A DNA stretch of 4,231 bases from a virus (taxonomy: Duplodnaviria; Heunggongvirae; Uroviricota; Caudoviricetes). The stretch is from the IMG/VR virus record IMGVR_UViG_2778260979_000026; one strand, written 5' to 3'. Below are positions 714 through 4,231 of this stretch, one piece after another; position 1 is the first letter of the stretch; every line of letters begins with the position of its first letter. A program made the translations under genes and the position numbers. A model generated the notes under the pieces. It saw only the letters and a program-made list of their open reading frames with translations, had not been told where the DNA came from and made no database searches.

Positions 714-1190
714 ATGCTTAGTGGTAAAGACTTAGGCCGAGCGATAGAGCAGGCCATTAACAAAAAAATTGCATCAGGAGCCGTCAAATCAAAGGCGGAA
801 ATCGCACGTCATTTCAAAGTCCAACCACCATCAATCCATGACTGGATTAAGAAAGGTTCGATAAGTAAAGACAAACTTCCAGAACTATGGCGTTTCTTTT
901 CTGATGTGGTTGGTCCAGAGCATTGGGGGCTTAACGAATACCCCATACCAACCCCATCCACTTCAGATACAAAAAGTGAACTTTTAGACATAAACAGCCT
1001 TTATCAAGCCGCCTCTGATGAAAAAAGAGCAATTGTGGCTTTCCTCTTATCTGGAAATGCTACGGAGCCTAGTTGGGTTGATCATGACGTTCGTGCCTAC
1101 ATTGCCGCAATGGAAATGAAGGTAGCTAACTATCTGAAAAATCAAGAATCAAAACGGAAAAGCCAGAACATCACCAAGACAGGAACTTAA
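714..1190 (+). CDS. racR: Prophage repressor RacR (CI functional analogue)
   Basis: The 158-aa product MLSGKDLGRAIEQAINKKIASGAVKSKAEIARHFKVQPPSIHDWIKKGSISKDKLPELWRFFSDVVGPEHWGLNEYPIPTPSTSDTKSELLDINSLYQAAS... is near-identical to E. coli Rac RacR as I recall it, at the same length. It is divergent from the cro-like gene and flanked on both sides by operator palindromes. Confidence 0.9.
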   Translation: MLSGKDLGRAIEQAINKKIASGAVKSKAEIARHFKVQPPSIHDWIKKGSISKDKLPELWRFFSDVVGPEHWGLNEYPIPTPSTSDTKSELLDINSLYQAASDEKRAIVAFLLSGNATEPSWVDHDVRAYIAAMEMKVANYLKNQESKRKSQNITKTGT

Positions 1191-1283: not shown

Positions 1284-1327
1284 ATTAGGCGTAGCCTATT
1301 GACAAGCAATTAGGCATTTCCTATAGT
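1284..1327 (+). promoter_or_regulatory. OL-type operators overlapping a near-consensus sigma70 promoter (pL analogue) reading rightward
   Basis: -35 TTGACA at 1299..1304, a 17-bp spacer, then -10 TATAGT at 1322..1327. Operator-like palindromes ATTAGGCGTAGCCTATT (1284..1300) and TAGGCATTTCCTA (1312..1324, one mismatch) overlap the -35 and the spacer/-10. A weaker half-site TATTAGGT lies at 1265..1271. Confidence 0.65.
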
Positions 1328-1427: not shown

Positions 1428-1658
1428 ATGACGGCAGGGTTCAACTTTAACTATGCAGCAGGTTTTTGTTCCGCTACCCCGGCGTTAAGGGGATATGAGG
1501 TCAGCATGGATACTCTTGATCTTGGCAACAACGAATCTCTGGTGTGCGGCGTGTTTCCCAACCAGGACGGCACGTTCACCGCGATGACGTATACCAAAAG
1601 CAAAACGTTTAAAACCGAATCTGGCGCGCGTCGCTGGTTAGCAAGAAACTCTGACTAA
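1428..1658 (+). CDS. Small hypothetical prophage protein, first ORF downstream of the pL-like promoter
   Basis: A 76-aa ORF with GAGG about 10 nt upstream of the ATG at 1428. An in-frame ATG at 1506 has a better-spaced GAGGT 5 nt upstream and would give a 50-aa product. Its position corresponds to the ydaG/ydaF slot of Rac. I do not recognise the sequence with confidence. Confidence 0.5.
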   Translation: MTAGFNFNYAAGFCSATPALRGYEVSMDTLDLGNNESLVCGVFPNQDGTFTAMTYTKSKTFKTESGARRWLARNSD

Positions 1659-1740
1659 TGAAATCTGGTAATTAAGGAATCCTCCACGGGGGGAGAGTGG
1701 TGCACACGCGCCGGACACAAGCAAGCATCCGGCATGCTCT

Positions 1741-1760
1741 TTAACAATCTGGATATCCAT
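1741..1760. repeat. TTAACAA-TCT-GGATATCC element 13 bp downstream of the stop of the antisense gene
   Basis: Contains the palindrome GGATATCC (1751..1758). ATCTGGATATCC (1746..1757, extendable to 13 bp) is the exact reverse complement of GGATATCCAGAT at 2313..2324. TTAACAA is also shared with 2324..2330. Confidence 0.5.
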
Positions 1761-1772
1761 AACAGTAAAAAT

Positions 1773-2264
1773 CTACAGATTGCCGTTCAGTTTTCTGGCC
1801 AACTCTTCAATAGATGGAGGTGATACGTAATCCGGATTTTTATTCATAAGAAACTGATTTTCACAGTACAGGCACCTGCTTTTATGAAAAAATTCATATT
1901 CTCTAACCGGGAATGGCTGAAGTATCGATACTATCTTTTGTCCAAAACATTTTGGACAAAGATGCATGATTATGCTGCCGCCGTTCACGGTTACCTCCTT
2001 CGAGTACACAAAAGTTCCCGACTCAAGTTGGCTAAGGATATAACCTTCCGTCTGAGCCTCAAAGTTTTCAAATTCTGCAATTTTAGCTTTGAGAGAAGCA
2101 TTTATTTCTTGATAAGTGCCCACCAGCTCAACGAGAGACACGCATTCGCGCTGAATAGATGCAAGCTTTGAGTTCAGTTCACCAATAGCCGCATTTACTT
2201 CAGCTTGAGTTTTTGCCTCGTTCATTAGTTTTGCAATCTGGGCGGTTTCACGAATAGCCGTCAT
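1773..2264 (-). CDS. Hypothetical protein with a coiled-coil-like N-terminus and a C-terminal CxxC-x22-CxxC zinc ribbon; candidate moron or exclusion gene
   Basis: Minus strand ORF ending at TAG 1775..1773. Start chosen at ATG 2264..2262, giving MTAIRETAQIAKLMNEAKTQAEVNAAIGELNSKLASIQRECVSLVELVGTYQEINASLKAKIAEFENFEAQTEGYILSQLESGTFVYSKEVTVNGGSIIMHLCPKCFGQKIVSILQPFPVREYEFFHKSRCLYCENQFLMNKNPDYVSPPSIEELARKLNGNL. The track's longer version starts at a TTG at 2441 and translates the upstream repeats into Pro/Arg-rich sequence, which looks non-coding. There is no obvious Shine-Dalgarno, so the exact start is uncertain (the next in-frame ATG is at 2225). The gene is oriented against its neighbours and is more AT-rich than they are. 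Confidence 0.6.
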   Translation of the reverse strand: MTAIRETAQIAKLMNEAKTQAEVNAAIGELNSKLASIQRECVSLVELVGTYQEINASLKAKIAEFENFEAQTEGYILSQLESGTFVYSKEVTVNGGSIIMHLCPKCFGQKIVSILQPFPVREYEFFHKSRCLYCENQFLMNKNPDYVSPPSIEELARKLNGNL

Positions 2265-2302
2265 TGCTGCCGTTAATTCAGCGATCACATTCAATACTCT
2301 TA

Positions 2303-2348
2303 TTGTTGTTGGGGATATCCAGATTAACAAGATCCTTGTTGTTGGGGA
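2303..2348. repeat. Direct repeat TTGTTGTTGGGGA x2 (2303..2315 and 2336..2348) flanking GGATATCC-AGA-TTAACAA
   Basis: An exact 13-bp direct repeat with 33-bp periodicity. The palindrome GGATATCC (2313..2320) and TTAACAA (2324..2330) sit between and partly within the copies. The module lies between the start of the antisense gene and the remnant exonuclease gene. Confidence 0.6.
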
Positions 2349-2372
2349 ATAACGGGGACCACCTCGCCTGAC

Positions 2373-2810
2373 GTGGTAAAAAGCAGGCACACAACACGAA
2401 AGCACACGGCGAGGGACACCATTAAATGGTGGCTTAAGCAATCACGCGAAGCGCAATCTGCCATTATGACCGATGAAATCCCGTTAGATGATGCACTGTT
2501 ACAATTGCGGGAATTTATCGACGAAAACTCCGGTGAATTTTTTGTTCAGGTCTGGGGAAATGGAGCCAACTTCGACAACACGATTTTGCGCCGTTCATAC
2601 GAACGGCAGGGGATCCCCTGCCCGTGGCGTTACTACAACGATCGCGATGTACGCACAATCGTTGAGCTGGGGAAAGCCATAGACTTCGATGCCAGAACGG
2701 CTATTCCATTCGAAGGTGAGCGCCATAATGCACTTGATGACGCCCGTTACCAGGCAAAATACGTTTCAGTTATCTGGCAAAAACTGATCCCGAATCAGGC
2801 TGATTTTTAA
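2373..2810 (+). CDS. DEDDh-type 3'-5' exonuclease family protein (Rv2179c-like), apparently 5'-truncated
   Basis: The product carries an Exo II-like motif (WGNGANFDNTILRRSYER) and an Exo III-like Hx4D motif (HNALDDARYQAKY) but no N-terminal hydrophobic-strand/DxE Exo I motif. The first ~13 residues (MVKSRHTTRKHTA, from a GTG start) do not resemble the family. An in-frame ATG is at 2466. Neither start has a convincing Shine-Dalgarno. Confidence 0.65.
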   Translation: MVKSRHTTRKHTARDTIKWWLKQSREAQSAIMTDEIPLDDALLQLREFIDENSGEFFVQVWGNGANFDNTILRRSYERQGIPCPWRYYNDRDVRTIVELGKAIDFDARTAIPFEGERHNALDDARYQAKYVSVIWQKLIPNQADF

Positions 2811-2821
2811 TGTTCAACCCC

Positions 2822-2854
2822 GGTCGTTGCCCACCAGCTATAGTGGCGGCGACC
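2822..2854 (+). other. GC-rich stem-loop in the exonuclease-xis intergenic region
   Basis: GGTCGTTGCC(C)AC pairs with GTGGCGGCGACC with G-U wobbles and one bulge, about 12 bp, around the loop CAGCTATA. No U-tract follows on either strand, so it is not a canonical intrinsic terminator. Confidence 0.3.
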
Positions 2855-2874
2855 ATGATTAGCGAACGACGCTC

Positions 2875-3123
2875 ATGGCAAGACTTATTCTGCTCACTGA
2901 GTGGGCAAAAGAGGAATTCAGTGAACCGGTCCCAACTCCGAGTACGTTAAGTAAATACGCTAAAGCCGGAATGATATTTCCTCTCCCCAAAAAAGTTGGA
3001 AGACGCTGGCGAGTGGATCCGCAAGCTCGCTTTGTCGGAATGGTAAACAAGCCGGAGGTGATCGCCACAGATCACCCTGCTTTGAAGAGGATACTGGAAG
3101 ATGGCGCGCCCGCGAAAATATAA
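2875..3123 (+). CDS. xis: Excisionase (Xis, DNA-binding)
   Basis: An 82-aa basic protein, MARLILLTEWAKEEF...GMIFPLPKKVGRRWRVDPQARFVG, typical of excisionases. It lies immediately upstream of int and overlaps it by 23 bp. Confidence 0.8.
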   Translation: MARLILLTEWAKEEFSEPVPTPSTLSKYAKAGMIFPLPKKVGRRWRVDPQARFVGMVNKPEVIATDHPALKRILEDGAPAKI

Positions 3124-4231
3124 AACCGATGTTCCGGGATTATCTCCGTATTTTGACAAAAGAAATAACAAAGTTTACTGGCGTTACAGGCATCCCATAA
3201 CAGGCAAAAATCACGGTCTCGGCAGTATTGACCAGAAACTGGCAGAAACTATTGCAGCAGAAGCGAACAGCCGTCTTGCCCGGCAGCAAATGGAACAAAT
3301 GCTCAGTCTGCAGGAGAAAATTATTAGTGATACCGGCGGTTCATCAACCGTTACCATTTTTCTGAATAATTACAGAAAAATTCAACAGGAAAGATATGAA
3401 AACGGCGAGATCAAACTCAACACGCTGAAACAGAAAGCGGCCCCTCTCAGGGTATTTGATGAACGTTTTGGCACCAGACCGTTAGATGCCATAACCGTAA
3501 AAGATGTGGTATCAGTACTGGAAGAGTACAAGGCCAGAGGACATAACAGAATGGGACAAATTTTCAGGAAAGTACTGATCGATGTTTTCCGGGAAGCTCA
3601 GCAAACGGGCGATGTCCCGCCAGGCTTTAACCCTGCAGAATCGGCAAAAAAACCGCAGGTGCGGATATCAAGACAGCGACTGACTTTTGATGAGTGGATG
3701 ATGATTTATAACGCAGCGGAAAAGGATGGTTACTTTTTACAGCGCGGTATGCTGCTGGCACTGATGACAGGCCAGCGCCTTTCAGATATTTGCAAAATGC
3801 AATTTTCGGATATCCGGGATGGTTATCTTCATGTCGAACAGCAAAAAACAGGAACCCGGATTGCCATCCCTCTGGCTCTGCGTTGCGATAAATTAAATCT
3901 CACCCTGGATGATGTGGTGTCATCCTGCCGCGATTGCGTTCTTAGTCCGTGGCTATTGCACCACCATCACGCGAAAGGGACAGCTAAGCGCGGCGGGATG
4001 GTTAAGCCAGCAACATTAACCGTTGCATTTAAAAAAGCCCGGGATTCTGTGGATTACAACTGGCGTGCTAATGGCACCCCTCCCTCTTTCCATGAGCAGA
4101 GATCTTTATCAGAGCGATTGTTCAGAGAGCAGGGGGTTGATACCAAAATTTTGCTAGGCCATTCGAATCAAAAAATGACCGATATTTACAACGACGCACG
4201 CGGTAAGGAATGGAAAAAACTGGTCATTTGA
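3101..4231 (+). CDS. int: Tyrosine site-specific integrase (lambda Int family)
   Basis: A 376-aa product with an arm-binding-type N-terminus (MARPRKYKTDVPGLSPYF...). Catalytic signature elements are visible: R in GQRLSDI, H-x-x-R in HEQRSLSERL, and the H...Y pair in LLGHSNQKMTDIYNDARGKEW. The stop TGA is the last codon of the window. Confidence 0.9.
   Translation: MARPRKYKTDVPGLSPYFDKRNNKVYWRYRHPITGKNHGLGSIDQKLAETIAAEANSRLARQQMEQMLSLQEKIISDTGGSSTVTIFLNNYRKIQQERYENGEIKLNTLKQKAAPLRVFDERFGTRPLDAITVKDVVSVLEEYKARGHNRMGQIFRKVLIDVFREAQQTGDVPPGFNPAESAKKPQVRISRQRLTFDEWMMIYNAAEKDGYFLQRGMLLALMTGQRLSDICKMQFSDIRDGYLHVEQQKTGTRIAIPLALRCDKLNLTLDDVVSSCRDCVLSPWLLHHHHAKGTAKRGGMVKPATLTVAFKKARDSVDYNWRANGTPPSFHEQRSLSERLFREQGVDTKILLGHSNQKMTDIYNDARGKEWKKLVI

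Follow-up and report, generated by a model that had tools for sequence, protein, structure and literature searches.

In a 4,231-nt stretch of Caudoviricetes DNA (IMG/VR record IMGVR_UViG_2778260979_000026; hereafter the window, meaning the whole stretch at its full length), a single open reading frame (ORF) on the minus strand lies amid plus-strand neighbours, namely racR, a DUF1391 gene, an exonuclease remnant, xis and int, as a first-pass annotation made from the sequence alone had described. The segment is 100% identical in prophage Sp6 of Escherichia coli O157:H7 Sakai, where RefSeq places ECs_1504 / WP_000559928.1 at the corresponding positions 1773-2288 with a GTG start and calls it a 'hypothetical protein'. 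Judged by its sequence and predicted fold, this gene belongs, as a diverged member without annotation, to the family of ring interacting pore 1 (Rip1), and it probably serves a Rac-type prophage as a single-protein abortive-infection defence that acts through a ring-triggered pore. The coding sequence and the parts of its product are located as follows.

1773..2288, minus strand: rip1-like coding sequence, ECs_1504 / WP_000559928.1 of O157:H7 Sakai prophage Sp6, with a profile match to PDB entry 9oox at E=5.1e-24
2220..2282, minus strand: N-terminal amphipathic helix, codons 3-23, a helix in the AlphaFold2 model and the predicted membrane-active part
2052..2207, minus strand: long helix with heptad character, codons 28-79, an AlphaFold2 helix with a predicted local distance difference test score (pLDDT) >90 that carries the conserved LKAKIAEF motif
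1839..2039, minus strand: C-terminal beta-rich four-Cys (zinc-ribbon-like) domain, codons 84-150, the predicted ring-binding sensor, which carries the SILQP motif
1956-1958, 1947-1949, 1872-1874 and 1863-1865, minus strand: codons of C111, C114, C139 and C142

Reading frame, start codon and protein architecture

The minus-strand coding sequence runs from a GTG start to a TAG stop and encodes 171 residues beginning MIAELTAAM. The start had been placed at ATG 2264, which is codon 9, but the RefSeq annotation and the homologous loci locate the conserved start at GTG 2288. Of 16 homologous loci from other strains and genera, 15 retained the GTG (in one case TTG) with IAEL after it and the last began MVDIAS...; the Enterobacterales homologues shared the N-terminus MIAEL(S/T)AAM. 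An in-frame TGA lies 9 nt upstream of the start in three loci, while other loci carry frameshifts or indels there, and the retained start together with this TGA argues that the true product is the 171-residue form.

Comparison with the 16 homologous loci gave ratios of nonsynonymous to synonymous substitution rates (dN/dS) of 0.11-0.40 for the minus frame, indicating purifying selection, and among close relatives 19 of 28 substitutions fell at its third positions. Overlapping it on the plus strand is an ORF at 1884-2171, and whether that ORF might be the conserved frame had been left as a check on the minus-strand assignment. Within 1884-2171, 14 of 17 nucleotide changes altered the amino acids of the plus-strand ORF and 7 of 17 those of the minus frame. 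On this substitution pattern and the minus-frame dN/dS, the plus-strand ORF was rejected as a shadow frame, its claim to coding is already refuted, and the minus-strand ORF is evidently the real gene. Base composition proved less informative. The G+C values that had been sampled by hand (40.0% and 38.3% inside the gene, 51.7% in int) were reproduced, but the int stretch was unrepresentative, the whole of int having 46.3% G+C and the window likewise 46.3%; at 41.9%, the gene is not distinctive beside racR and ydaS (42.6% each), and AT-richness was set aside as an argument for foreign origin.

An AlphaFold2 model built on a 32-homologue alignment reached a mean pLDDT of 91.6. The N-terminal half, characterised at first reading as Ala/Glu/Lys/Gln-rich and heptad-like, indeed forms the two modelled helices spanning residues 3-23 and 28-79, the best a/d register of the long helix being 79% hydrophobic. 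The hydrophobic moment of residues 7-25 was 0.44 (mean hydrophobicity ~0.05), against 0.42 at the same position of Rip1 from Escherichia phage HK446. No transmembrane-like segment was found, in agreement with the first-pass annotation, the maximum 19-residue Kyte-Doolittle mean being 1.13. Both CxxC pairs predicted for the C-terminal domain are present, with the spacing corrected from x22 to CPKC-x24-CLYC (C111, C114, C139 and C142). Conservation within the subfamily peaks in the N-terminal helix (0.75) and the long helix (0.68) and is lowest in the segment between the CxxC pairs, with a column identity of 0.36 and indels. Conserved N-terminal helices coupled with a hypervariable inter-CxxC loop suggest a conserved effector joined to a diversifying sensor.

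Relationship to Rip1 and to other prophage exclusion genes

The first-pass annotation had regarded the protein as an orphan that could not be placed in any family, a view that database searches overturned. The protein matched PHROG 1244 (phrog_1244, function unknown) at 1e-57, while Pfam and NCBIfam returned only chance-level coiled-coil matches. A single-protein phmmer search against the PDB retrieved 9oox (E=3.6e-7), the entry for 'ring interacting pore 1 (Rip1)', in an alignment that paired up both Cys pairs. A profile of 32 enterobacterial homologues matched the same entry at 5.1e-24, the match covering positions 6-152 of the profile and residues 16-160 of the 164-residue chain. According to its PDB title, 9oox is HK446 Rip1 complexed with the small terminase of Enterobacteria phage T6, and the translation of HK446_037 agrees with the 9oox chain at every aligned residue shown (positions 16-160). 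Searching the PDB with the AlphaFold2 model by Foldseek yielded 9oox_M and 9oox_L as the only hits at E<=1e-3 (E=4e-7, probability 1.0), with a template modelling score of 0.71 normalised to the target over 120 aligned columns. The sequence-profile and structure searches suggested at first reading thus converged on Rip1.

Pairwise blastp comparisons extended the relationship to HK446_037 (E=5e-13, 27% identity), HkaP of phage HK620 (E=2e-21, 32% identity over the full length) and gp30 of Pseudomonas phage JBD30 (E=6e-20, 30% identity). Residues Q46, L66, V94-Y95, I122-L123-Q124 and the four Cys are invariant or nearly so across the subfamily, HkaP, HK446 Rip1 and JBD30 gp30; of these, C111, C114, C139, C142 and I122 never vary, and L123 and Q124 hardly do. 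Among 1.84 billion representative proteins searched with a profile, 3,340 clusters matched at E<=1e-3, 1,822 of them at E<=1e-10; the best 150 of the listed clusters were nearly all 145-180 residues long with full-length matches, and close homologues formed 109 clusters. The Rip1 family itself was first described in 2026, and what the window adds is an abundant, unannotated member of an enterobacterial subfamily rather than a new kind of protein.

Rip1 is a prophage-encoded single-protein defence that is non-toxic on its own (review PMC13434031, summarising Patel et al., Nature 651:1060, 2026). Phages escape it by mutations in the portal (Pseudomonas phages) or the small terminase (E. coli phages), and 12 Rip1 monomers encircle an 11-mer small terminase, with the C-terminal half of Rip1 touching the terminase ring and the N-terminal part forming an amphipathic helix (PMC13434031). 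The assembly is a pore, as indicated by liposome dye release, holes in cells and premature lysis (PMC13434031). Rip1 homologues are widespread in proteobacterial prophages, and the Pseudomonas Rip1 gene sits between terminase genes (PMC13434031). A Nature Communications paper and a meeting report concur on these essentials. The earlier statement that the protein does not look like a membrane protein stands for the lack of a transmembrane segment but not for its likely end state, Rip1 itself being soluble until triggered and a membrane pore thereafter.

HK446 Rip1 and the window protein share one layout. At 164-171 residues, each is a single protein in which an amphipathic helix at the N-terminus is followed by a long helix and then by a four-Cys beta domain at the C-terminus, and the two sequences align at both Cys pairs and at the VY and (S/T)ILQ motifs. 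Each is encoded by a prophage gene opposite to its neighbours, and HK446 rip1 occupies the pL-proximal sieB slot, antisense between N and cIII. By contrast, identity between the two is ~27%, the window protein belongs to the enterobacterial subfamily PHROG 1244 with the N-terminus MIAELSAAM, its subfamily has a GTG start and a distinct leader, and the window has no N gene between the rip1-like gene and the repressor. The gene for gp30 of JBD30, a casadabanvirus, is antisense between two late genes annotated as hypothetical, outside the immunity region, a location consistent with the between-terminase position of Pseudomonas Rip1 (PMC13434031). HkaP, found in HK620 and also in HK629, HK630 and a Stx1a-converting phage, is likewise encoded antisense, between N/hkaQ and cIII, but belongs to another subfamily with an ATG start. 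We know of no experimental test of HkaP. Its gene is preceded by an analogous leader layout with two ACCCCTACAG repeats, and the HK620 record (2001) already called hkaP a 'putative superinfection exclusion protein'.

SieB of Rac, lambda and P22 is the product of a prophage superinfection-exclusion gene, known from annotation and from work on P22 and lambda. Its gene shares with the rip1-like gene both the slot and the orientation relative to the pL operon. The proteins differ, as SieB has strongly hydrophobic transmembrane-like segments (Kyte-Doolittle 2.19, compared with 1.13) and no Cys motif, and blastp between them gave no meaningful match (best E=40 over 3 residues). SieB and the rip1-like protein are analogues that use a common slot and are not homologous.

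Genomic slot, leader and mobile cassette

The surroundings of the gene within the window are listed below.

Window start, minus strand: ydaT fragment, then a ydaS-like cro gene, the first genes in the window order
714-1190, plus strand: racR
1299..1327, plus strand: pL-like sigma-70 promoter TTGACA-17-TATAGT, matching 11 of 12 positions, the sole promoter-like site in 1200-2900
1428-1658, plus strand: DUF1391 gene
1736..2396, no strand assigned: mobile cassette of 661 bp comprising the gene, its leader and a 37 bp 3' flank, delimited by megablast and a four-way alignment
2289..2396, minus strand: conserved non-coding leader, ~105 nt upstream of the GTG, with cross-genus identity above that of the coding sequence
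2303-2315 and 2336-2348: leader repeats, TTGTTGTTGGGGA on the plus strand
2409..2810, plus strand: C-terminal remnant of a DEDDh 3'-5' exonuclease (823 residues in the full form), a pseudogene without N-terminus according to PGAP
After the exonuclease remnant, plus strand: xis and int

In K-12 Rac, the gene order is racR-ydaG-ydaF(DUF1391)-sieB-kilS-kilR with sieB on the opposite strand, and in the window it is racR-DUF1391-rip1-like gene, again with the last gene opposite, which bears out the idea in the first-pass annotation that the gene occupies the sieB slot. An antisense position beside the immunity region is conserved more widely. In 12 homologous loci from other genera (Citrobacter, Scandinavium, Kosakonia, Trabulsiella, Symbiopectobacterium, Kluyvera and Enterobacter), the rip1-like gene was convergent with a helix-turn-helix or cI-type repressor gene in 10. 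In the seven loci with identifiable upstream genes (exonuclease, yfdPQR, an N-like gene and DUF1482), these were opposite-strand genes of the early-left class. The slot is polymorphic: the O157:H7 TR01 prophage at ompW shares the dicB-DUF1482-exonuclease backbone but has other small genes there (positions 2270-3501 of that prophage's own stretch: ydfC, two hypothetical genes, a 77-residue opposite-strand gene and no rip1). These comparisons document sieB and rip1 as interchangeable cassettes in a conserved pL-antisense defence slot of lambdoid prophages, one that can be mined for further single-gene defences and that matters for phage-therapy host-range prediction against enterohaemorrhagic E. 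coli.

By its coordinates, the pL-like promoter points through the DUF1391 gene and then antisense through the rip1-like gene. As this sole good promoter runs against the gene, it is a reasonable inference that the rip1-like gene would be expressed in the lysogen and silenced on induction. TTAGGC/GCCTAA inverted repeats, read by eye in the racR/ydaS divergent region (600-700) and around the pL-like promoter (1280-1330), are candidate RacR operators.

An intact sister prophage at potC in E. coli UC4224 carries DUF1391, rip1-like, dicB, DUF1482, the 823-residue exonuclease gene, xis and int in this order. Comparison with this arrangement, in which the alignment breaks at ~2412, indicates that the window and Sp6 carry a deletion that removed dicB, the DUF1482 gene and ~680 codons of the exonuclease gene. 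The adjacent 'recombination gene' of the first-pass annotation is thus present but truncated, retaining only the C-terminal part that matches the Pfam family Rv2179c-like at 1.2e-46. A sub-threshold Rfam STnc100 match (33 bits against a gathering threshold of 47, E=7e-5) was seen at 6933-7150 on the plus strand of the intact sister-prophage stretch, just upstream of, and overlapping, the dicB start and within the part deleted from the window; DicF was not found in the Rfam scan of the sister locus, nor was any Rfam match found in that of the window. Positions 1-2819 of the window are 100% identical to Sp6 at potC. Positions 2811-4231, with xis and int, match at 100% another prophage, which in O157:H7 TR01 sits at ompW, ~190 kb away. 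None of the complete E. coli genomes searched had the two halves adjacent (boundary ~2811-2820); either two prophages recombined through their exonuclease genes, which are homologous, or the window is an assembly chimera.

The cassette edges emerged from a comparison of related prophages that the first-pass annotation had envisaged with junctions near 1741 and 2400. With window positions 1700-2420 as the megablast query, the matches of the 93% class spanned query positions 37-697, and in the four-way alignment homology began at ~1736 and stopped at ~2396. The cassette is common to Rac-like prophages and to unrelated CPS-53/yfdP-type prophages at ~93.6% identity, and it also occurs in the inducible ECOR13 phages PhiR49_1 and PhiR29, so that the unit has moved between prophage backbones. 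Inside it, an imperfect 26-nt inverted repeat (1746-1771 / 2300-2325, 81% complementary) brackets the gene, with a 13-nt exact core AATCTGGATATCC / GGATATCCAGATT and both arms kept in the CPS-53-type copy. A scan for intrinsic terminators found none, and on the minus strand the hairpin at 1710-1733 has no T-run. The CPS-53-type copy does have a stem, AGCGTCC-TGTA-GGGCGCT, with TTTTTT after it on the rip1 sense strand, just outside the cassette at positions 5975-6000 of its own stretch.

Of 5,426 complete E. coli genomes, 681 (~12.6%) carried the rip1-like gene and 648 had it intact; in 287 of the 681, including the sampled O157:H7 genomes, identity was >=99%. This makes the window subfamily the commonest of the three Rip1 lineages searched in E. 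coli, the HK446 type occurring in 96 and the HkaP type in 66 of the same genomes, and the genome copies of all three are labelled 'hypothetical protein'.

The leader upstream of the GTG is more conserved than the gene it precedes. It was 74-85% identical to loci from other genera whose coding sequences were 53-65% identical, with third positions at 35-49%. The outer boundary of the leader is also that of the cassette, and ~16 bp lie between it and the end of the Sp6 deletion. Read on the minus strand, it holds two direct repeats (T)CCCCAACAACAA spaced 33 nt apart, a GGATATCC palindrome and a 5' segment GCCTG..CCAC..CAGGC..GTGG, and the analogous ACCCCTACAG pair of HK620 lies ahead of the start codon in HK446 as well. 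An N-terminal coding extension was rejected, as in-frame TGA codons or frameshifts occur in four loci. Folding gave no support for a structured RNA, the minimum free energy z-score being +1.0 (172 of 200 shuffles folded at least as well). RNAalifold gave -7.6 kcal/mol and no covarying pairs for the leader alignment, and a hairpin or pseudoknot proposed by hand (GCCTG/CAGGC with CCAC/GTGG) was invariant and hence uninformative. No conserved sigma-70 promoter was detected in the leader, a relaxed scan giving only 7-8 of 12 matches that were not conserved across loci. We tentatively raise the possibility, which we hold to be less probable than its opposite, that the leader is an undescribed cis-regulatory element tying Rip1 expression to lysogeny or a host factor, and that the subfamily, which is fixed in O157:H7, may recognise a trigger set unlike that of HK446 Rip1. 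In any case, an over-conserved leader offers a lead on how potentially lethal effectors are regulated.

Predicted mechanism and alternative explanations

From homology with HK446 and Pseudomonas Rip1, we infer for the ECs_1504 product expression in the lysogen, a trigger, ring assembly, pore formation and a defence phenotype. In the lysogen, pL would be repressed and would send no transcription against the rip1-like gene, whose own upstream region would drive expression of a soluble monomer that is not toxic. Once a superinfecting phage reached late expression, the C-terminal four-Cys domain would bind its ring oligomers, either small terminase or portal, and the phage ring would template a Rip1 ring of ~12 subunits. 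The clustered N-terminal amphipathic helices would then enter the inner membrane as a pore, and cell death or lysis would precede completion of progeny. A defence function for the ECs_1504 product is thus supported through homology, which gives a likely function and mechanism to a 'hypothetical' protein of O157:H7 Sakai. The first-pass annotation had favoured a lysogen-type exclusion or abortive-infection gene, non-homologous to SieB, in the sieB slot, and both the Rip1 homology and the Rac gene order support this; its alternative, a role in counter-defence, gained no support.

Several observations weigh against the ring-triggered pore. Trigger specificity, and even pore formation, could differ at an identity of only ~27% to the characterised HK446 Rip1, and the Rip1 mechanism is taken here from a review, a meeting report and a PDB title. 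Sigma-70 scans gave no convincing promoter for the rip1-like gene, and the host prophage is decaying, with a deletion adjacent to the cassette. PADLOC-DB v2 (2023) returned only a chance-level match (E=0.041) to a coiled-coil segment of a type I restriction endonuclease, as expected for a family described in 2026. Literature searches found no experiment on the ECs_1504 product or on the enterobacterial Rip1 subfamily, those with ECs1504, hkaP and HK446 being uninformative.

The alternative that survives best, although we regard it as unlikely, is that a protein of the Rip1 fold defends by another route, either sequestering small terminase or portal without forming a pore or sensing a different oligomeric phage protein. 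The same low identity to HK446 Rip1 would allow it, the hypervariability between the CxxC pairs suggests diversified targets, and escape loci differ by host between portal and small terminase (PMC13434031). However, the most conserved parts are the N-terminal and long helices, a pattern that fits an effector with a variable sensor better than sequestration.

That the gene is decaying as a passenger in a defective prophage and at present does nothing in its host is considerably less probable. The deletion ending ~16 bp past the cassette took everything from dicB through most of the exonuclease gene, and no clear promoter was found, both of which would suit a passenger. Yet O157:H7 genomes carry the ORF intact and at 100% identity to one another, its dN/dS is well below 1, the deletion left the whole conserved leader in place, and the cassette has moved between prophage backbones and between genera, all of which speaks against a passenger.

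Hardly any weight falls on the last alternative, in which the plus-strand ORF 1884-2171 is the real gene or the region is chiefly a part of the pL operon with an antisense or regulatory role. In its favour, the pL transcript runs opposite to the gene and the codon-aligned antisense frame is open for 102-133 codons in all homologues, but such openness is the usual compositional shadow-frame effect, the substitutions follow the minus frame as described above, and it is the minus-frame product that has a solved homologue.

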